From a virus (Duplodnaviria > Heunggongvirae > Uroviricota > Caudoviricetes): a stretch of 36,361 nt of DNA. Positions within the stretch are counted from its first letter, which is position 1. Every line of letters begins with the position of its first letter. Positions 1 through 36,074 of this stretch are shown piece after piece. The notes beneath the pieces are model-generated. The model ran no database searches and had not been told where the DNA came from. It saw only the letters and a program-made list of their open reading frames with translations. The position numbers and the translations under genes are program-made. The stretch lies in the IMG/VR virus record IMGVR_UViG_2579778635_000006; one strand, written 5' to 3'.

Positions 1-1056
1 TTATGACGGGGTAATGCCAACCGCTGCCGCCACTTTGTCGCCACTTGGCAGCGTTGCCAGAGGATTGAAACGGAGCGCCGTTTCCAGATGATCCGGTGCC
101 AGATGTGCGTAACGCATAGTCATTTTTATATCGTGGTGTCCGAGAATTTTTTGTAAGGCCAGAATGTTTCCACCCGACATCATGAAGTGCGCCGCAAACG
201 TATGGCGCAGAACGTGTGTGAGTTGACCGCGAGGGAGCACGATAGACGTTTTTTCCATTACGGATAAAAATTGAAAATAGCAGTCTGTGAAGAAATTGAA
301 TCCATCAAGCGCCATGATCTCTTCATAAAGCTCTTTACTGATAGGGATGCTTCTGTTTTTCTTCCCCTTCGTTCTTACAAAGGTAATTCGGTATTTAGTC
401 ACCTGTGATCGGGTAAGGTTTATTGCTTCTCGCCAGCGTGCGCCTGTGCTTAAGCATATCTTGACTACCAGTGCCAGAATTGGGTCCTGACGTTTGCAAT
501 CAGCCAGCAGTTCAACAATCTGCTCATGGGTAAGCCATGCCATCTCTTTTTCTGCGATGGTGAATTTTCGCATGTTCTCCAGTGGGTTTGGATACGACCA
601 TTCGCCCAGGCGGGATAGTTCGCTAAAAACACTACTTAGATAGCTTTGCTCCAGGTTAATGGTGACCGGGCTGGCTCCTTTCTTCCATTTCTCGCTGAAG
701 TAGATCTCACCGGTCAGGCGTTTATCTCGATAGTGGGCAAACATTTTAGAGGTGAGATTGGTTGCAAGAGGATTGCCTAGAGCGTCAACCATCAGCAGCA
801 ATTTGTCATAGACATGCTGCCCAGCAGTCAGAGATTTACCATGTAATTTGAACCATAGCTCAACCACGTCTTTCAGGGTTCGACGATCCACTGATTCGCC
901 CAGCCAGGGCTTTGATTCGGTTTCTTCCATCGTGTGACGCTCAAAAGCCAGAGCTTCGCCTTTGGTGGCGAATTGTTTACGCACACGACGCCCACTTCGT
1001 CCGGCGGGGTAACATTCGCAAAGCCATTTCCCTGTGGTGAGTTTTCGTACTGCCAT
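1..1056 (-). CDS. int: Tyrosine integrase, P2/186 Int family
   Basis: 351-aa ORF. The C-terminal catalytic region (LSTGARWREA, HVLRHTFAAHF, ILGHHDIKMTMRYAHL) fits tyrosine-recombinase signatures. It sits next to the att repeat and the cI repressor, as in P2 and 186. Confidence 0.95.
   Translation of the reverse strand: MAVRKLTTGKWLCECYPAGRSGRRVRKQFATKGEALAFERHTMEETESKPWLGESVDRRTLKDVVELWFKLHGKSLTAGQHVYDKLLLMVDALGNPLATNLTSKMFAHYRDKRLTGEIYFSEKWKKGASPVTINLEQSYLSSVFSELSRLGEWSYPNPLENMRKFTIAEKEMAWLTHEQIVELLADCKRQDPILALVVKICLSTGARWREAINLTRSQVTKYRITFVRTKGKKNRSIPISKELYEEIMALDGFNFFTDCYFQFLSVMEKTSIVLPRGQLTHVLRHTFAAHFMMSGGNILALQKILGHHDIKMTMRYAHLAPDHLETALRFNPLATLPSGDKVAAAVGITPS
22..44. repeat. attL: Putative attL core (cgctgccgccactttgtcgccac), overlapping the 3' end of int
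   Basis: Matches 33507-33529 at 21 of 23 positions, both mismatches C/T. It lies at the outer edge of the int gene. Confidence 0.6.
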
Positions 1057-1126: not shown

Positions 1127-3115
1127 TTAAAAAACATTCTTATCCCCGTGGAAAAAACGTGCAACGTTCAATAGCCAGTCGGGGGTTTTTATTTCATTTG
1201 AATTTGCTAGTATTTCTAAATATTTTTCGCAAAATTCATTTTTTTTTCCTGGTAATTCGAAATAATCCTCAATAGCTTTTTTTTCTGTAATGTTAAGATT
1301 CAAAGCGCCTCCCGATACTGAAGACTCCATTAACTGTGGGGTTTCCATAAAGGACAAACTAGTTTCTCCTTTAGTGTAAAGCATTTTCAGAGTTTCTACG
1401 TAGAAATCAGCATTAAGAGACTGCTCAATTTCTGTAGGTGGATAAACTCGATCATCAGTAACTTTAACAAGGCTTATATTAGATAAGTCTTTATCGAGCA
1501 AGAGTCTTCTTATTTTTATACTTGGTATTGTATCTGTAGCATCATATGGACTATATTTGTGATCTGTATCTAATAATAATAATACTTTTCCTGAGATTGT
1601 TGCTTTGCGATCCTCTAACGCCATAACGAGTAAATTATATATTTTTTTTACTGTAGGGGAGCCACCGACGGATAAAACTATTAGTTTCTCAATGTTTTCA
1701 TAATCCAAGTGAGCGGAAATATATTTTCTATCAGTTTTTCCTTCGCACAATATCCAGTTATAATTATTTCCAGATGTTATTGAATAAACAATTGATTGTG
1801 CTAAGTCGTGATTGCTTTTCATTTCTAAAACGTCAAGGTAAGAGCCATTTGACTCTTTTGCTAGTTCCTTTAATTCATCCTTGTAGTTTTCCAGATCGAG
1901 TGCTTTGATGTATGTTTGAGAGGGGGAAATATATATGGCTGTACCTGAGCCTGTAACAGGTAAAAAACCATACCAATGAGTTGTACAAATAGTCTGTATG
2001 CCTAGGTCGCTAATTTTTTTTATTTTATCAAATTGATTAAAACATGATGTGGCATGTAAGGATAATTCAGGTTCATCAACAGCAAGAATTGTTGAGTGCT
2101 GAGATTTTTGTGGATTATGTTTTAAGAAATTGGTAGCAAGATCTAGCAATGCTTTTCTTTTTTCTCCTGAGCTTAAATTTTGCACAGGGGTATCTTTATT
2201 AACATCATCAATATGATGTAATATTTTATCACTAAAATATGATTCAATTATTTTAGATATCATATGACGTTGAGTGAAACTATTTTGTCGCTGAGATGGT
2301 TTTTTAAATTGATATCGCCCCTCAAGCTTTGTAGTTAATTGTCTAATAAAATCATTTAAGTGCGAATTTATTGCTGTAATATCCTTTTTCTTAATGATTT
2401 TACTGATTTTTTGTTGGAGATTTTCACCTAATAAAGACTGTAATAAATCGCTTTCAATCCTTGAGTATTCGGATGTGGTTATTTCTGCAGGTAGGTAAAT
2501 ATAATTATAGATATCCTTAATTGTTATTAATAGCTTAGGTAGTATATTGTTAAAATGATATTTTTTATTATTCGTCGAACTATTTTCATTTGCGAGATCA
2601 TCAATTTGCAATCGATAATCATCTATAGATTCGAAAATTGACATGTAGGGGCGAGGAATATCATTTGCAGTTTCTTTTATTATCCCAAGGGGAATTAATA
2701 AATATTCATCTGAAGAATATTTGTATTCTAGTTGCTTCCTGTGTGATATAAATTTCTCAGCTATAGGACGTTGCAATGTATTAAAAACTTCACTTTCTAT
2801 TTGCCAAGTGATATCGCTTACGATTTCTAATGCTTTGTATAGGGAATTATTTATCTTTAGCTTGTTTTTATTTATTAAATAAATTGGCACAATGAATGGT
2901 TCTCGAGTATCGAAACCTTGACTGCGCGCTTCATTGTTGATATCAAGTCTATTGATATCAGTTTTATTTAGTACAATATCTAATGCTTGTAATATTGAGC
3001 TTTTCCCGACACCATTTTCACCAATGAGCCAAGAGGATTTATTGTTTAAAGTGAGAGGGATATAATGTTGATTTTTGAAATTCTTGAAATTTCGTAAAAT
3101 AACACCAATAATCAT
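1127..3115 (-). CDS. OLD-family ATP-dependent nuclease: N-terminal ABC-type ATPase fused to C-terminal TOPRIM (class-1 OLD or fused AriA-AriB/PARIS-like)
   Basis: 662-aa ORF. Walker A is GENGVGKSS near the N-terminus and Walker B-like is ILAVDEPELSLH. The C-terminal region has the TOPRIM signatures CEGKTD and LLLDTDHK. The gene is visibly AT-rich against the phage backbone and lies between cI and int. Confidence 0.8.
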   Translation of the reverse strand: MIIGVILRNFKNFKNQHYIPLTLNNKSSWLIGENGVGKSSILQALDIVLNKTDINRLDINNEARSQGFDTREPFIVPIYLINKNKLKINNSLYKALEIVSDITWQIESEVFNTLQRPIAEKFISHRKQLEYKYSSDEYLLIPLGIIKETANDIPRPYMSIFESIDDYRLQIDDLANENSSTNNKKYHFNNILPKLLITIKDIYNYIYLPAEITTSEYSRIESDLLQSLLGENLQQKISKIIKKKDITAINSHLNDFIRQLTTKLEGRYQFKKPSQRQNSFTQRHMISKIIESYFSDKILHHIDDVNKDTPVQNLSSGEKRKALLDLATNFLKHNPQKSQHSTILAVDEPELSLHATSCFNQFDKIKKISDLGIQTICTTHWYGFLPVTGSGTAIYISPSQTYIKALDLENYKDELKELAKESNGSYLDVLEMKSNHDLAQSIVYSITSGNNYNWILCEGKTDRKYISAHLDYENIEKLIVLSVGGSPTVKKIYNLLVMALEDRKATISGKVLLLLDTDHKYSPYDATDTIPSIKIRRLLLDKDLSNISLVKVTDDRVYPPTEIEQSLNADFYVETLKMLYTKGETSLSFMETPQLMESSVSGGALNLNITEKKAIEDYFELPGKKNEFCEKYLEILANSNEIKTPDWLLNVARFFHGDKNVF

Positions 3116-3135: not shown

Positions 3136-3726
3136 TTATTTACAAGTCATAATTACTTTAGCGATGATATTAACATCACTGATATTGCACTCTATTTTTT
3201 TTGATTTTGACTCTAGCATTATGCGGTTATTAGGTAACCTCATTAATTCTCGAACAGAATATATACCGTCAATGGCAATCAACCATAACCCATCATCAAT
3301 CTCATCCACACCTCGTCTCACGACATAAGTTATATGCTCATGCTCAAGAGCTGAGATATCTTTTAGGTCATTTGGCAATAGTGATAAATCAAAAATTAAA
3401 TAGCCATTATCAATCAGTTTGCCATCGATAATTTTCTCTCTGGTCAGGCTTACAACATGCGATTTTGCATCCACATACATGGGGCCTTCAGCTGCGGATA
3501 GCCAACGAAGTGAAATACCTGTTTCTAACGCACATTGAATTATCCAATCAGCGGGGAATGTATCTCTCATATATCGATTAGCTAACGTGCTTTTAGAAAC
3601 ACCAAGATGTTCAGCCAAAGCCTGTCGTGTCGTAAAGCCATAAGCTTCGACTAATCGCTCAATCGCAGCCTTACCACCTTTATTGGGATTTATTTTGATC
3701 TCACTTGGGTACTTTGATGTTGACAT
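3136..3726 (-). CDS. cI: Immunity repressor, 186 CI family
   Basis: 196-aa ORF. N-terminal HTH region (AYGFTTRQALAEHLGVSKSTLANRY) and C-terminal domain resemble 186 CI (recalled from memory). It is divergent from apl/cII across the switch region. Confidence 0.9.
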   Translation of the reverse strand: MSTSKYPSEIKINPNKGGKAAIERLVEAYGFTTRQALAEHLGVSKSTLANRYMRDTFPADWIIQCALETGISLRWLSAAEGPMYVDAKSHVVSLTREKIIDGKLIDNGYLIFDLSLLPNDLKDISALEHEHITYVVRRGVDEIDDGLWLIAIDGIYSVRELMRLPNNRIMLESKSKKIECNISDVNIIAKVIMTCK

Positions 3727-3821
3727 ATCTCTTTTGCGATCCTAGTATCACTTTTGTCCCCATTTGGGTACTTGTCACGATTACTACAGGCTCACCACAA
3801 GCCAATAGGAGATGTTGCATC
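3727..3821. promoter_or_regulatory. Lysis-lysogeny switch region (pR/pL-type promoters and CI operators expected)
   Basis: Intergenic region between divergent cI and apl, by analogy with the 186 switch. Exact promoters and operators were not resolved by eye. Confidence 0.5.
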
Positions 3822-5415: not shown

Positions 5416-5649
5416 ATGCGTAATATTGAAACCCTCACGACTAAAACCGGACCGGATGATGCAGGGCTTAATATTTTACTGACAGAGGCTCGTCTGGAAG
5501 AACGCCGGGCAAGGGCTGAAGCAATGGCAGCTCGCCTTGATAGCCTGGCGTGTCATATCACATCCCGCCAGCTAAACCATGTCGAAGCAGCAGAACTGCT
5601 GCGTGTGACCGCTGAAGCAATCCAGAACGAAGCGCAGGAGATCCACTGA
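5416..5649 (+). CDS. Hypothetical early protein
   Basis: ATG at 5416 with AGGAG upstream. Its stop overlaps the next gene start (ATGA). Confidence 0.6.
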   Translation: MRNIETLTTKTGPDDAGLNILLTEARLEERRARAEAMAARLDSLACHITSRQLNHVEAAELLRVTAEAIQNEAQEIH

Positions 5650-5876
5650 TGGCTGATGCAATGGATCTCGTACAGCAGCGAGTTGAAGAAGAACGCCAGC
5701 GTCATATCCGTGCTGCCCGTGCCAAAACGCCGGGCGTGTCCCGCGTGCTTTGCGTTGAGTGTGAAGCGCCAATTCCGCCAGCACGCCGCCGTGCCATTCC
5801 GGGTGTGCAACTTTGCATTACCTGTCAGGAAATCGCAGAGCTGAAAGGCAAACATTACAACGGAGGTGCTGTATGA
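5649..5876 (+). CDS. TraR/DksA-family C4 zinc-finger protein (P2 orf82-like)
   Basis: 75-aa product with CxxC...CxxC (CVECEAP...CITCQE). Translationally coupled to its neighbours. Confidence 0.75.
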   Translation: MADAMDLVQQRVEEERQRHIRAARAKTPGVSRVLCVECEAPIPPARRRAIPGVQLCITCQEIAELKGKHYNGGAV

Positions 5877-6730
5877 GCACCATCCTGAAATGGGCGGGAA
5901 ATAAAACCGCCATTATGTCCGAACTGAAAAAACATCTTCCTGCTGGTCCGCGACTGGTTGAACCTTTCGCGGGTTCCTGTGCAGTGATGATGGAGACGGA
6001 TTACCCCAGCTATCTTGTTGCGGATATTAATCCTGATTTAATCAACCTCTATAAAAAGGTTGCTGCTGATTGTGAGGCGTTTATATCTCGTGCCAGAGCT
6101 TTATTTGAGGAAGCAAACAGAGAGGTGGCTTATTACAACATAAGGCAGGAGTTTAATTACTCCACTGAAATTACTGATTTCATGAAAGCGGTATATTTTC
6201 TGTATCTCAATCGTCATGGTTACCGTGGGTTATGTCGTTATAACAAGAGCGAGCATTTCAACATTCCATACGGTAATTATAAAAATCCGTATTTCCCTGA
6301 AAAAGAAATTCGCGCATTTGCAGAGAAAGCCCAGCGAGCAACGTTTATCTGCGCCAGCTTTGATGAAACGCTGGCGATGCTGCAGGTGGGGGATGTGGTG
6401 TATTGCGATCCGCCTTATGACGGTACGTTTTCCGGCTATCACACTGATGGTTTCACTGAAGATGACCAGTATCACCTGGCATCTGTTCTTGAATATCGAT
6501 CATCAGAAGGTCATCCAGTCATTGTTTCTAACAGTGACACATCCCTGATCCGTTCGCTGTATCGAAATTTCACTCACCACTACATCAAGGCAAAACGCAG
6601 CATCGGCGTGTCGGCTGGCGAGAGTAAATCTGCAACAGAAATCATTGCTGTTTCCGGGGCGCGCTGCTGGGTGGGATTTGATCCTTCGTGTGGCGTGGAT
6701 AGTTCTGCTGTGTACGAGGTGCGTGTATGA
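5873..6730 (+). CDS. dam: DNA adenine methyltransferase (Dam-like, GATC-type N6-adenine MTase)
   Basis: Product begins [11 protein letters not shown] and contains the catalytic DPPY motif (VYCDPPYDG). ATG at 5873 overlaps the upstream stop. Confidence 0.9.
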
Positions 6731-9141
6731 GTCATGACGATATGAGCAACTCTAGCGGCTTTAACGAGGCCGCTGTAGCATTTTCATGGAACGGCCCGAA
6801 AAAGGCCATTAACCCTTATCTGGACCCGGCGGAAGTTGCGCTGGAGTCTGCACTTTCAAACCTGATCACTCTGTACGCTGCCGATAATGAGCAGGAACAG
6901 CTGCGCCGCGATGCACTGAGTGAGCAGGTCTGGGAGCGTTATTTCTTTAATGAATCCCGTGATCCTGTCCAGCGTGAAATGGAGCAGGATAAGCTCATTA
7001 GTCGGGCAAAGCTGGCGCATGAACAGCAGCGTTTTTACCCGGACATGGTCATTCTGGCGGACGTCAGCGCCCAGCCTTCCCACATCAGCAAGCCGCTGAT
7101 GCAACGTATCGAATATTTCAGCAGCCTGGGCAGGCCAAAGGCTTATTCTCGCTATCTGCGTGAGACGATTAAGCCATGTCTGGAACGACTGGAGCATGTA
7201 CGCGACAGTCAGCTATCCACTTCTTTTCGCTTTATGGCAAGCCATGAAGGGCTGGACGGCCTGCTGATCCTGCCTGAAATGAGTCAGGATCAGGTGAAAC
7301 GCCTGTCTACCCTTGTCGCTGCGCATATGAGCATGTGTCTTGATGCCGCTTGTGGTGATTTGTACGCCACCGATGATGTTAAGCCAGAAGAAATCCGCAA
7401 GACATGGGAAAGGGTGGCAGCGGAAACCCTACGTTTGGATGTCATCCCGCCTGCGTTTGAGCAACTCCGTCGGAAAAGAAACCGCCGTAAACCAGTGCCC
7501 TATGAACTCATTCCGGGCTCGCTGGCGCGTATGCTGTGCGCCGACTGGTGGTATCGGAAATTGTGGAAGATGCGTTGCGAATGGCGGGAAGAGCAGTTGC
7601 GTGCTGTCTGCCTGGTCAGCAAAAAAGCATCTCCCTATGTCAGCTATGAAGCTGTGATGCATAAACGTGAGCAGCGCCGTAAGTCGCTGGAGTTTTTCCG
7701 TTCTCATGAACTGGTGAACGAAGACGGAGACGCGCTGGATATGGAAGATGTGGTAAACGCCAGCTGCAGCAACCCGGCGCATCGCCGCAATGAGATGATG
7801 GCCTGTGTTAAAGGTCTGGAGCTTATCGCGGAAATGCGCGGTGACTGCGCCGTTTTCTACACCATTACCTGTCCGTCATGTTTCCATTCCACGCTAAATA
7901 ACGGCAGACCCAACCCGACCTGGAAAAACGCGACGGTAAGACAAAGCAGCGATTATCTGGTCGGTATGTTTGCTGCATTTCGTAAGGCGATGCACAAAGC
8001 CGGGTTGCGCTGGTATGGCGTGCGGGTGGCTGAGCCGCATCACGACGGCACAGTTCACTGGCACCTGTTGTGTTTCATGCGCAAAAAAGACCGCCGCGCC
8101 ATTACTGCATTGTTGCGTAAGTTTGCTATCCGTGAAGACCGCGAGGAGCTGGGCAATAACACGGGGCCGCGCTTTAAGTCTGAGCTGATTAACCCGCGCA
8201 AAGGAACGCCGACAAGCTACATAGCGAAATACATCAGTAAGAACATTGACGGGCGTGGTCTGGCTGGCGAGATCAGCAAGGAAACGGGTAAATCTCTTCG
8301 TGATAACGCTGAATACGTGAATGCCTGGGCGTCTTTGCATCGTGTTCAGCAATTCCGCTTCTTTGGTATTCCGGGGCGTCAGGCTTACCGTGAACTGCGA
8401 TTGCTGGCTGGTCAGGCGGCAAGGCAGCAGGGTGACAAAAAAGCAGGTGTGCCGGTACTGGATAACCCGCGCCTTGATGCCATTCTGGCTGCTGCTGATG
8501 CTGGTTGTTTTGCCACCTATATCATGAAGCAGGGAGGTGTACTGGTTCCCCGTAAATATCACCTCATCAGAACTGCTTATGAAATTAACGAAGAGCCGAC
8601 CGCCTATGGCGATCACGGTATTCGTATTTATGGCATCTGGTCACCCATTGCAGAGGGCAAGATCTGCACTCATGCAGTGAAGTGGAAAATGGTTCGTAAG
8701 GCCGTTGACGTTCAGGAGGCGGCAGCCGACCAGGGCGCTTGCGCCCCTTGGACTCGTGGCAATAACTGTCCCCTTGCTGAAAATTTGAACCAACAAGGGA
8801 AAGACAAATCAGCTGATGGGGACTCCAGAACGGATATTACCCGTATGAATGACAAGGAGTTGCACGATTACCTGCACAGTATGAGCAAAAAAGAGCGCCG
8901 GGAACTGGCTGCAAGGTTACGCCAGGTGAAACCGAAACGGCGTAAAGACTACAAACAGCGAATTACAGACCATCAGCGACAGCAGCTCGTCTATGAACTG
9001 AAGTCCAGGGGATTTGATGGCAGCGAGAAAGAAGTCGATTTGCTCCTTCGCGGCGGCAGTATTCCGTCAGGAGCAGGCCTGCGTATCTTCTATCGGAACC
9101 AGCGTCTGAAGGAAGATGATAAGTGGCGGAACCTGTATTAA
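6727..9141 (+). CDS. A: Rolling-circle replication initiator, P2 gpA family
   Basis: 804-aa ORF with the HUH-type motif VHWHLLCF and a tyrosine-containing region (YIAKYISK). Position before the cos-proximal region is as in P2. Confidence 0.95.
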
Positions 9142-9918: not shown

Positions 9919-10254
9919 TTACGAATGATCATTCTGTTTAGTCTTCATGAGAAAATCCCGAATCTTTGCCAAGTTTGAATTTTCGGGGATTGAATCCATG
10001 TACGGATCACGCTCAAACACTAATTGCTCAGATTCAACGAAAGCCTGCCACTCTACTGGGTCTAGCTCAAATCCCATTGCTGTCATATCACTTTCATCTT
10101 CCCCCTCGATCCAGTGGACTAAATAAAACAATTCATCATCAGGAGAATCATCCTCACCATCAACAATATCAACATCGGTTACAGTGATACGTAGGGTGGG
10201 ATCGATTTTTGAGACATAAATTCCTAACTGTGGTATAGGGGGAATATTGTTCAT
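9919..10254 (-). CDS. Highly acidic small protein (111 aa), hypothetical; candidate DNA-mimic/anti-restriction or immunity-type protein
   Basis: ATG with AGGAG about 6 nt upstream on the minus strand. About 26 D/E against about 7 K/R by eye. Opposite orientation to the flanking early genes, in a cos-proximal accessory region. Confidence 0.6.
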   Translation of the reverse strand: MNNIPPIPQLGIYVSKIDPTLRITVTDVDIVDGEDDSPDDELFYLVHWIEGEDESDMTAMGFELDPVEWQAFVESEQLVFERDPYMDSIPENSNLAKIRDFLMKTKQNDHS

Positions 10255-10633
10255 GGAAACTCCTTTTATTGGTGTTTGCTATTTGAATAAAAATACGCCA
10301 AACAGAGTGTTAACTGTGAATATGGAAAGAATCGTTGTAAGTACCCCGCTTAGGTGTCCCATTCTATTTTAGAGGTTCTCGTGCATATGGATTATGTTAT
10401 CTGAAAGTTAACTTCCGCTTCCCGTTCACAGCGAACATTCATCTTTGTAAACCCGTATGGTCCGTTTTTCAAGTGGCCATTCAGATACGGATTTTTACTT
10501 CTTTGACAGTGCATGACTATGCTGCATGAAATCGCATGATCGATTGAGGATCGTCTTTGCTCAGATCCGCCAGAACTGGCGGGCTTTTGCTCATGTCATG
10601 CATGTGCATGAAAACCACTGCATAAAGCGGGCA

Positions 10634-10652
10634 GGCGTGGCGGGGATACGAG
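10634..10652. other. cos: Candidate cos site (cohesive-end region)
   Basis: ggcgtggcgggga matches the first 13 nt of the 186 cohesive end as I recall it (GGCGTGGCGGGGAAAGCAT). Location between the early-region end and the portal gene is the expected one. Confidence 0.4.
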
Positions 10653-10733: not shown

Positions 10734-12131
10734 ATGAAGATGTATGAAGTAATTGATATATCAGCGCAGGAAATTAAGGCGTTGTTAAACACTGCTGAAG
10801 ATCATTTCAATGATTTTAAAAGTAAGCAAATAGCGCCTAATAAATTACAAGAAACTTTTGTAGCATTTGCAAATGCTGATGGCGGTAATATTTATATTGG
10901 CATAGAGGATGCAGCTTCGGGGAGAGAGCGTATATCTGGTTTCAATGAGCCAGAGGAAGCGAATGCTATTATTTCGACCTTATTGGAAAATACTAATCCA
11001 GCTGTTGAGAATGTTGAGGTGGAATATTTAAGAACACCTTCCAATGGATTGATTTTACATGTGGATATACCAAAAAGCCCCAAAGTTCATTACACGGCCT
11101 CTGGCGATTGCTTTATAAGAGCTAACGCGCAAAAATTAAAAATAAAAGGTGAGCGAATTACTCAGCTTTCCTATTCTAAAGGCGCAGAACCTTATGAAAA
11201 AAAAGCAGTGGATATAGTTGAAGTAGAAGATATTCTTGAAAGTGAATATTATTCTGATTATTTACGTAGAATAGGAACGACTCAGTCACCGAGAGTTTTT
11301 TTAAAAAAACAACGACTGTTAACTAAGAAAGATGGTGAATTTGTCCCGAATGTAGGCTGTGTTTTACTATTTGATGAAGAGCCTCAAGGATGTTTAGATA
11401 CTCGATGTGCTGTAAAAGTATATCGGCTTAGAACAACTGAAGCAGAGTACAAACGTGAACAATTACAGGAAGATCCTGTAACGATTGAGGGGCCACTTGA
11501 AGTGGTTATTTTAAATACAATAGCAAAAGTAAAAGAATATGTTGATGGAGCATCATTCAAAGACGGCGAAAATCTAGTAAAACTTAGCTATCCTGCAGAA
11601 GCATTGAAGGAAATATTAGTTAATGCTGTTATTCATAGAGATTACAGCCAAAAGGATGATGTGCACGTAAAAGTTTATGACAACCGGATTGAAGTTCAAA
11701 GTCCAGGCAGATTGCCTGGATACATGACTATTAATAATTTATATGAAGAGCGGTTTTCTCGTAATCCAAATTTAGTGCGTTTGTTGCATAAACTTCCCAA
11801 TCCAGTGAACCATGATATTGGTGAGGGGCTTGATACTGCAAAAAATGAATTGCGTAAGGCCGGGTTGGTAGCCCCGGTATTTGAAGAAAGGGGCAATAAT
11901 TTTGTTGTAATAGTTAAGCATCAAACAATAGCCTCAATTGAGGATGTGATTATTAATTATTTTAAAGAAAATCCAACGGGACAGCTCACAAATAAGTTGG
12001 TTAGACAATTAAGTGGCGAAGATGACCTTCAAAAGGTTAAAAAGGCATTGCAAAAGTTAAGGGAGGAGGGCGTAATAAAACCATTAGATCCTAACGCGAA
12101 TCCTTTCAAATTTAAATATATTAAAGCTTAA
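10734..12131 (+). CDS. AlbA_2 (Schlafen-like) + HATPase_c_4 + C-terminal wHTH protein; candidate defence/exclusion cargo
   Basis: 465-aa ORF with AAGGA upstream. N-terminal AlbA_2-type signature (DFKSK...FVAFANADGGNIYIGIED), central HATPase_c_4-type signature (NAVIHRDY...DNRIEVQSPGRLPG...SRNP), then a helix-rich tail. Strongly AT-rich against the backbone. Followed by a bidirectional terminator. Confidence 0.8.
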   Translation: MKMYEVIDISAQEIKALLNTAEDHFNDFKSKQIAPNKLQETFVAFANADGGNIYIGIEDAASGRERISGFNEPEEANAIISTLLENTNPAVENVEVEYLRTPSNGLILHVDIPKSPKVHYTASGDCFIRANAQKLKIKGERITQLSYSKGAEPYEKKAVDIVEVEDILESEYYSDYLRRIGTTQSPRVFLKKQRLLTKKDGEFVPNVGCVLLFDEEPQGCLDTRCAVKVYRLRTTEAEYKREQLQEDPVTIEGPLEVVILNTIAKVKEYVDGASFKDGENLVKLSYPAEALKEILVNAVIHRDYSQKDDVHVKVYDNRIEVQSPGRLPGYMTINNLYEERFSRNPNLVRLLHKLPNPVNHDIGEGLDTAKNELRKAGLVAPVFEERGNNFVVIVKHQTIASIEDVIINYFKENPTGQLTNKLVRQLSGEDDLQKVKKALQKLREEGVIKPLDPNANPFKFKYIKA

Positions 12132-33741: not shown

Positions 33742-35427
33742 TTATCCTAATCCTGGCCATACCATGACGATGATTGTCCCTGCCAGCGTCAGCAGGACGT
33801 TGGCGATTGCGTAGGTGCCCGCATAGCCCAGCGCAGGGATGTTACTGCGAGCTGTATCACTGATGATCTCCATTGCCGGCGCGCAGGTGCGTGCGCCCAT
33901 CATTGCGCCGAACAACAGTGCGCGGTTCATTCGCAATACATAAGCACCGAACAAGAAACAGATAACCACGGGCACAAGACTGACAATTAATCCGGCAATC
34001 AACATCTGACCGCCAATCGCGCCCAGGCCGTTATTAATACCGCTACCGGCGCTCAGACCAACGCCTGCCATAAACACCATCAAGCCGAACTCTTTCACCA
34101 TGCTTAATGCACCTTGCGGAATGTAACCGAAGGTCGGGTGGTTAGCACGCATAAAGCCCAGCATAATTCCGGCGAATAACAACCCGGCAGCGTTCCCCAT
34201 GCCGAAACTGAATGTGCTGAACTGGAAGGTGATCATCCCGATCATCAGCCCAATAACAAAGAAGGCGCAGAATGCCAGCAGGTCAGTGACCTGGCTGTGA
34301 ATCGAGATAAAGCCGATGCGATCGGCGATGGTTTTTACGCGGCGGGCATCGCCGCTGACTTGTAAAACGTCACCTTTGTTAAGCACGACGTTGTCATCTA
34401 TCGGCATCTCAATCTGGCTACGAATGACGCGGTTAAGGAAGCAACCGTGATCGGTCAACTTCAGTTGTGCGAGACGTTTACCTACAGCGTTATGGTTTTT
34501 AACGACCACTTCTTCAGTGACGATACGCATGTCGAGAAGGTCACGATCGAAAACTTCTTTACCGTTACGGAAGCTGGGATCGAGTCGGGCATGGGCGTCG
34601 GGATAGCCTACCAACGCTATTTCATCGCCCATTTGTAGCACGGCATCACCGTCTGGATTTGCCAGAATCCCGTTACGTCGAATACGTTCAATGTAGCAGC
34701 CGGTTTGTCGATAAATACCCAGTTCACGCAGATTTTTGCCGTCGGTCCAGGCCACCAGTTCCGGGCCGACGCGATAGGCGCGGATCACCGGTAAATAAAC
34801 CTTACGGTTGGCATCAGTGTCCAGGCCACGTTCGCGGGCGATTTGCTGGGCGCTGGTCTGTAAGTCCTGATGCTGCAATTTCGGCAAGTAACGCGCACCA
34901 ACAATCAAACTCACCAGACCGATTAAATAGGTTAAGGCATACCCGAGGCTCAGATTATCCAGTGCCAGTGAGAGCTGCCTGCTTTCCATGCCGGAATGAC
35001 GCAGTGTATCGCCAGCACCGACCAGAACCGGTGTCGACGTCATAGAGCCTGCTAACATACCGGCCGTCAGGCCAATATCCCAGCCAAACAGCTTACCTAA
35101 CCCTAAGGCGATCACCAGCGCACTGCCAACCATCACCAGTGCTAACATTAGGTAATTTTTCCCATCGCGAAAAAAAATGGAAAAAAAGTTCGGTCCGGCT
35201 TCGACCCCGACGCAGAAAATAAACAGCATAAAGCCAAGATTAAGCGCATCGGTGTTAATGCTGAAATGTTGTTGGCCTAATAACAGCGATACGACTAAAA
35301 CGCCAATGGAATTACCCAGTTGGATCGAACCAAGTCGTAACTTTCCGAGACATAGCCCAAGCGCGAGGACCACAAATAATAACAGAATGTAATTCCCATT
35401 TAACAATTCGGCGACGTTTATATTCAC
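33742..35427 (-). CDS. ybjL: Putative transport protein YbjL (AAE-family transporter with two TrkA_C domains), host gene
   Basis: 561-aa product recognised as E. coli YbjL. Apparent GTG start. Confidence 0.93.
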
Positions 35428-35696: not shown

Positions 35697-36074
35697 GTGA
35701 AACATAAACAACGTTGGGCGGGGGCAATCTGCTGTTTTGTCCTCTTCATTGTGGTGTGCCTTTTTCTGGCGACGCACATGAAAGGCGCTTTTCGGGCTGC
35801 CGGGCATCCTGAAATCGGCTTGCTATTTTTCATTCTTCCTGGAGCAGTCGCCAGCTTCTTTTCACAGCGTAGAGAAGTCCTGAAACCTCTGTTTGGCGCA
35901 ATGCTGGCGGCACCCTGTTCGATGCTCATTATGCGGCTGTTTTTTTCACCGACGCGCTCATTCTGGCAAGAGCTGGCATGGTTACTAAGCGCGGTGTTCT
36001 GGTGTGCGCTGGGGGCACTGTGTTTCTTATTTATCAGTAGTTTGTTTAAACCACAGCACAGAAAAAATCAGTAA
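35697..36074 (+). CDS. ybjM: Inner membrane protein YbjM, host gene
   Basis: 125-aa hydrophobic protein with the conserved ybjL-ybjM-grxA synteny. Confidence 0.9.
   Translation: MKHKQRWAGAICCFVLFIVVCLFLATHMKGAFRAAGHPEIGLLFFILPGAVASFFSQRREVLKPLFGAMLAAPCSMLIMRLFFSPTRSFWQELAWLLSAVFWCALGALCFLFISSLFKPQHRKNQ

Follow-up and report, generated by a model that had tools for sequence, protein, structure and literature searches.

The dam-like gene and its prophage setting

The window, by which we mean the whole stretch of 36,361 nucleotides analysed here, holds a P2/186-like prophage of E. coli. Its phage character is seen in int, CI, CII, gpA, portal and terminase genes and a cos-like site, and host genes adjoin it on the right. 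Within this prophage a dam-like gene is read rightwards between a TraR-like gene and replication gene A. The setting is defined by the following features:

1-1056, minus strand: integrase (Pfam match)
1127-3115, minus strand: OLD/AriA-like ATPase, 662 aa (AAA_15; PADLOC AriA 2e-23, Old 1.5e-17 (aa 287-496))
3136-3726, minus strand: CI repressor (Phage_CI_repr), divergent from the rightward cluster
3720-3748, plus strand: candidate pR-type promoter TTGACA-17-TAGTAT (consensus scan only), heading the dam-containing cluster
5649-5876, plus strand: TraR/DksA-type C4 zinc-finger gene, 75 aa (PF01258 4.4e-11; TIGR02419 1.5e-18)
5862-5866, plus strand: Shine-Dalgarno-like GGAGG, read from the sequence, 6 nt before the dam ATG and within the end of the TraR-like gene
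5873-6730, plus strand: dam-like CDS, ATG at 5873 and TGA at 6728-6730, 285 codons plus stop, uninterrupted
6716-6721, plus strand: Shine-Dalgarno-like GAGGTG of gene A, inside the last codons of dam (GAG GTG CGT)
6727-9141, plus strand: replication initiator/endonuclease gene A, 804 aa (Phage_GPA PF05840, 8e-126)
9919-10254, minus strand: acidic ORF of 111 aa between the DinI-like gene and cos
10734-12131, plus strand: Schlafen AlbA_2 + HATPase_c_4 protein, 465 aa, in the slot between cos and portal
33742-35427, minus strand: ybjL, a host gene (Asp-Al_Ex/TrkA_C transporter), at the right end of the window
35697-36074, plus strand: ybjM, a host gene, at the right end of the window

The preliminary description of this DNA had placed a phage-borne Dam-type gene with ILKWAGNK and DPPY motifs at 5873-6730, next to a TraR-like gene and gene A in the early region, and the present analysis bears this picture out. 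The ORF is intact at these coordinates and encodes 285 aa, both motifs are found (ILKWAGNK at aa 4-11, DPPY at aa 179-182), and profile matches identify the two neighbours as the genes named, each joined to dam through an ATGA. The upstream 75-aa product scored 67 bits against TIGR02419, which is above the cut-off of 59.7. The TGA of the TraR-like gene and the ATG of dam share a 4-nt overlap at 5873-5876, and the TGA of dam shares another with the ATG of gene A at 6727-6730. From these ATGA overlaps we infer that dam is probably translationally coupled to both the TraR-like gene and gene A. An earlier start, the TTG at 5813 taken from the mechanical ORF list (305 aa), was rejected because the alignments to Dam models start with the first residue of the protein translated from ATG 5873; it is also disfavoured by the Shine-Dalgarno-like sequence 6 nt before that ATG and by the RefSeq/GenBank relatives, which are annotated as 858-nt CDSs.

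The rightward cluster consists, in order, of an apl/cox-like ORF, CII (PF06892), a Fil-like ORF, DUF5347, DUF2732, TraR, dam, A and a DinI-like gene. A P2/186-like early layout is evident from the Pfam matches to integrase, Phage_CI_repr, Phage_CP76 and Phage_GPA, together with the cos-like core at 10634. Downstream of the DinI-like gene follow this core and a cargo gene, and after these the oppositely oriented portal and terminase genes and the genes for P2 morphogenesis, of which an annotated relative has the complete set. The first 25 kb of the window share ~95% identity, across 75% of their length, with Peduoviridae phages that infect Klebsiella and E. coli. In agreement with the early placement noted before, dam stands in the presumed early cluster, among rightward genes downstream of the pR-like promoter and opposite CI, and a scan revealed no strong terminator-like site between that promoter and dam. 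The consensus promoter match, the ORF layout and the organisation of phage 186 suggest that dam would be transcribed as part of an early operon.

The prophage lies between rcdA and ybjL, as it does in E. coli CE0021a, and since the window begins exactly at the integrase stop codon, the left attachment site falls outside it. The 662-aa ATPase sits between integrase and CI and carries the RefSeq name 'AAA family ATPase' in E. coli CE0021a; it is probably defence cargo of the OLD-family or PARIS-like kind. The slot between cos and portal is the insertion place of retrons Ec67 and Ec86 in 186-related prophages, and in the sister prophage of E. coli CE0021a it is occupied by other genes; this slot is likely a hotspot for defence cargo. 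The acidic 111-aa ORF at 9919-10254 had no match in Pfam or PADLOC.

Protein family and GATC-reading residues

By its profile and structure matches, the product is an alpha-class (D12) Dam-family AdoMet-dependent N6-adenine DNA methyltransferase, in agreement with the Dam-type assignment made at first sight. PF02086 (D12-class N6-adenine methyltransferase) was matched over profile positions 1-253 of 253 with an E-value of 4.4e-76 (256.4 bits against 22), and TIGR00571 'dam' with 3.9e-96 (321.8 bits, cut-off 114.85). The best solved-structure matches were E. coli Dam (2g1p/4gol, 6e-73), DpnII methylase 1 (3e-33) and T4 Dam (2e-16); of the 255 positions aligned with E. coli Dam, 47.5% are identical. 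A chance match is excluded by E-values of 1e-73 to 1e-96 together with Ka/Ks values of 0.12-0.17 against four relatives. The motifs, all on the plus strand, are arranged as follows:

5882-5905, plus strand: ILKWAGNK, aa 4-11; K6 and W7 correspond to K9 and W10 of E. coli Dam
5963-5977, plus strand: PFAGS, AdoMet-binding motif I (FxGxG type), aa 31-35; F32 and G34 are kept and the third G is C36
6020-6031, plus strand: ADIN with the acidic residue D51 (motif II), corresponding to D54 of E. coli Dam in the alignment
6212-6283, plus strand: DNA-recognition segment, aa 114-137
6407-6418, plus strand: DPPY, catalytic motif IV, aa 179-182, aligned to D181-Y184 of E. coli Dam
6653-6727, plus strand: C-terminal tail of 25 aa (261-285), beyond the aligned Dam core

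The order of motif I (31-36), recognition segment (114-137) and DPPY (179-182) is that of the alpha class, and the alignment with E. coli Dam shows conservation at the F35, G37 and R95 positions as well. The PDB and NCBIfam alignments stop at aa 260. The D-P codons of DPPY (GAT CCG, 6407-6410) themselves make a GATC site, one of four within the dam-like gene (6407, 6498, 6547 and 6680).

Enzymes of the Dam type bind AdoMet, flip the target adenine out of double-stranded DNA and transfer the methyl group to its N6 within GATC. In the recognition segment, residues Y117, L120, R122, N124, N130, P132 and Y136 equal Y119, L122, R124, N126, N132, P134 and Y138 of E. coli Dam. In the E. coli enzyme, the first base pair is handled by K9 and Y138 and the third is touched by L122 and P134, while at the fourth R124 recognises the G; Y119 inserts itself between A and T, and N120 is a base-contacting residue (PMC4417163); the roles of N126 and N132 lie outside the coverage of that paper, and these two are listed as conserved positions only. 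The GATC-reading set K9, Y119, L122, R124, P134 and Y138 is thus kept in full, with N120 replaced by R118. Because the recognition residues of E. coli Dam are conserved, GATC specificity is strongly implied, and the predicted target is very probably the GATC adenine, as for host Dam.

Compared with E. coli chromosomal Dam (2G1P, 4GOL), the phage protein belongs to the same fold family and has the AdoMet, DPPY and GATC-reading residues in common with it. It differs by R118 in place of N120 and N135 in place of R137, by being 5 residues shorter directly after DPPY, and by carrying at its C-terminus a conserved tail of 25 aa. Against NF008152/PRK10904, the equivalog model for chromosomal Dam, it scored 285.3 bits, which lies below the cut-off of 441. 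R118 was found in all five phage-clade sequences compared, and four phage relatives, down to ~74% identity, retain both the post-DPPY deletion and a large part of the tail. Since they are conserved among these four relatives, R118, the deletion and the tail mark a phage clade. Judged by its sequence, the protein belongs to a phage-borne clade within the Dam subfamily, distinct from the housekeeping orthologue. It should be underlined that part of the tail conservation is explained by the last tail codons (GAG GTG CGT) doubling as the Shine-Dalgarno sequence of gene A. In view of R118, N135, the short post-DPPY loop and the score below the NF008152 cut-off, kinetics or flanking-sequence preference could differ from those of host Dam.

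Orphan status, accessory slot and distribution

The gene had been proposed to be an orphan, and this agrees with what was found: it is flanked by TraR and gpA, no restriction endonuclease was found among the non-structural ORFs tested, and the best PADLOC model was oMTase ('orphan methyltransferase', 2.9e-111). A type II restriction-modification system was rejected on the grounds that neither these ORFs nor the annotated sister prophage of CE0021a include a partner nuclease. The other non-structural ORFs encode the integrase, the OLD/AriA-like ATPase, the DinI-like protein and the Schlafen/AlbA_2 protein, and the rest are without a family match. Judged by substitution ratios, the gene shows purifying selection and appears to have been kept functional (Ka/Ks 0.115-0.165 against four relatives).

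The G+C content is 45.9% for dam, compared with 56.1% for TraR and 52.9% for A. In phage ENT90, A comes directly after TraR, with no dam between them, and in a 186-like Yersinia phage the TraR-A slot is filled by an exonuclease gene and small ORFs; of 60 IMG/VR contigs that share the cos core and have the N-terminus of gpA upstream of it, 10 are without dam. On account of its low G+C relative to its neighbours and of the relatives that do without it, dam is an accessory module in a variable TraR-A slot, outside the core replication genes.

At the DNA level, 56 records of the phage collection matched the gene, 47 of them covering at least 80% of it at 90-96% identity; the matching records are annotated 'DNA adenine methylase/methyltransferase' and have the same two neighbours. 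At the protein level, a Dam-family homologue occurs in 1100 phage records, including P1 (35% identity) and T4 (~22%). Copies are present in 1239 of 5426 complete E. coli genomes, nearly all at 90-99% identity, and an identical copy (RefSeq WP_032286375.1) lies in the prophage between rcdA and ybjL of E. coli CE0021a. The exact protein is found on 153 contigs of a large protein collection under the name 'DNA adenine methylase'. Salmonella phage RE-2010, Klebsiella phages and E. coli CE0021a share the TraR-dam-A order, with equal lengths and overlaps. Clustering at 90% identity puts this Dam into a group of 2341 members, among them 804-aa replication endonucleases, one of which is the representative. 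This mixture of Dam and gpA is probably a clustering artefact caused by gene calls fused across the ATGA overlap; were it real, some copies would carry a frameshift fusing dam and A.

Hsu, Inouye & Inouye reportedly described in 1990 a 285-residue ORF ~44% identical to E. coli Dam. Hsu et al. 1990 is cited for a Dam DNA methylase in the 186-related Ec67 prophage (PMC7826664). In the Fels-2-like prophage of K. pneumoniae kp52145, TraR (228 nt), DNA adenine methylase (858 nt) and replication endonuclease (2415 nt) follow one another (PMC7826664), and this block has been linked to the element carrying retron-Ec67. That element is a 186-related prophage of 34 kb for which a Dam methylase was reported in 1990 (PMC7826664; also PMC6868368). 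The literature searched contained no functional study of a Fels-2/P2-like Dam and no experimentally established physiological role for it, and nothing was found under the REBASE-style name Eco67Dam. A Salmonella study of 'Dam-dependent epigenetic memory' was discarded as a precedent, as it concerns host Dam and ST64B. The gene is a routine, correctly annotated and already known prophage gene; standard pipelines name it correctly, and its discovery value is small.

Probable role, alternatives and relation to known systems

We consider it highly likely that the gene encodes a stand-alone, accessory GATC Dam that is made together with gene A in the early cluster and tops up a limiting host Dam. 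In this prophage, which is of the Felsduovirus type, dam would be read within the rightward pR cluster simultaneously with the replication initiator, and the ATGA overlaps would tie its translation to both neighbours. Endogenous Dam has been described as limiting for high-copy DNA. Because of this limitation, the phage enzyme may supplement it during rapid rolling-circle copying, so that progeny DNA would be packaged fully GATC-methylated whatever the level of host Dam. Full methylation might then protect virion DNA in the next host from m6A-sensitive restriction at GATC-containing sites, and the hemimethylated state, the substrate of MutH and SeqA, would be shortened. Phage Dam homologues and orphan methyltransferases have been discussed as protection of exported DNA, as anti-restriction factors or as regulators of the viral cycle (PMC12707154). 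The roles put forward in the preliminary description, pre-methylation against restriction and a change of host methylation, are reasonable and in line with such reviews.

A strong need for the enzyme is less evident, as the host E. coli is already Dam+, which makes the benefit of a second GATC methylase not obvious, and as the relatives without dam are viable phages. Extra Dam is also known to carry a cost, as its overexpression can activate the toxin of retron-Sen2 via msDNA methylation. The window contains 121 GATC sites against 141-167 expected (observed/expected 0.73-0.86), similar to other 4-mer palindromes. GATC avoidance as a sign of GATC-directed restriction was rejected for this reason, the depletion being mild and in the range of those palindromes.

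In the first alternative the same enzyme would serve mainly phage regulation, with methylation of particular GATC sites, for instance near cos or in the switch region, timing packaging or expression, as at P1 pac. The features near cos that bear on it are these:

10538, 10549 and 10564: three GATC sites, the first two, 11 nt apart, within an imperfect direct repeat, here GATCGATT / GATCGTCTTT
10566-10583: terminator-like hairpin, right after the three GATC sites
10634-10651: cos-like core GGCGTGGCGGGGATACGA

Measured from the cos-like core at 10634, the three sites lie 96, 85 and 70 nt to the left, and the consensus of the relatives for the repeat is GATCGTTT. Of 60 related viral contigs (IMG/VR), 58 have the pair at -96/-85, and in 91 distinct arms the conservation of its columns is 93-99%, compared with 85% on average. 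In P1, pac cleavage needs GATC methylation and the P1 methylase is essential in Dam- hosts (PMC12707154). Against this, the pair is equally present in all ten related contigs that lack a phage Dam, and for this reason it lends no specific support to a packaging role. The first eight loci had suggested a link between dam carriage and the GATC pair, which was dropped after the 60 informative IMG/VR contigs. Moreover, three GATC within 30 nt are unremarkable by chance (an estimated ~0.6 expected per window of such size), and the sites belong to a generally conserved arm beside the terminator-like hairpin. For P2-like phages we are aware of no experiment that connects Dam with cos cleavage, nor of a packaging role. 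A mainly regulatory function is, in our judgement, unlikely.

A related reading is that the phage-clade Dam has a distinct property, such as coupling to the gpA machinery or action on sites that host Dam leaves unmethylated, and/or that the GATC pair is methylation-sensitive. It arises from the clade-specific R118, the short post-DPPY loop and the 25-aa tail reaching the start of gene A, and we give it a low probability. If it were true, packaging or transcript termination could depend on methylation through the near-invariant GATC pair, whose members are spaced by one helical turn at ~90 nt from cos.

In the second alternative the chief target of the same enzyme would be the host: Dam produced in a burst upon induction would hyper-methylate the chromosome and disturb mismatch repair, oriC/SeqA sequestration or Dam-sensitive promoters, from which the phage would profit. 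Such action in trans has a parallel in the msDNA methylation by which overexpressed Dam triggers the retron-Sen2 toxin, and excision of the P2-like prophage SopE-phi is reportedly favoured by Dam methylation (PMC7380047). These data, however, concern host or P1 Dam, other than the phage clade considered here, and nothing in the sequence points to a host target; any influence on the host would follow incidentally from the one activity, with no separate mechanism. We regard a primarily host-directed function as very improbable.

The D12 family also includes enzymes with other target sites. That the gene encodes a D12-class methyltransferase of non-GATC specificity, or an inactive remnant, is hardly credible: R118 in place of the base-contacting N120, the shorter post-DPPY loop and the score under the chromosomal-Dam equivalog cut-off would fit it, but the discriminators of the first, third and fourth GATC base pairs are all conserved, the identity to E. 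coli Dam is 47.5%, a Ka/Ks of ~0.13 and intact motifs speak against decay, and the 186-related Ec67 prophage is cited as Dam-encoding (PMC7826664).

A GATC Dam that supplements the host enzyme during phage replication is our preferred reading. A prophage Dam in lysogens can confound dam-mutant phenotypes and the interpretation of methylomes, and the phage enzyme may serve in anti-restriction and could set off abortive-infection systems of the retron type.

With regard to known systems, this Dam differs from E. coli Dam in being phage-borne and presumably expressed only during lytic growth. P1 Dam (dmt) and T4/T2 Dam are likewise orphan phage GATC methyltransferases of the D12 family; their identity is 35% for P1 Dam and ~22% for T4 Dam, and their genomic context is unlike TraR-dam-A. 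In the Felsduovirus-type phages (Salmonella phage RE-2010, ADQ92385.1; Klebsiella ST11-VIM1phi8.4, 4LV2017 and others) the gene is also 858 nt long, at 94-96% nucleotide identity, and dam, its neighbours, the overlaps and the product name are alike, only the cargo slots (int-CI and cos-portal) being different. The retron-Ec67 prophage (Hsu, Inouye & Inouye 1990; Dodd & Egan 1996) likewise has a Dam gene in a ~34-kb 186/P2-like prophage; its cos-portal slot holds a retron, whereas the slot here holds the Schlafen/AlbA_2-type gene.
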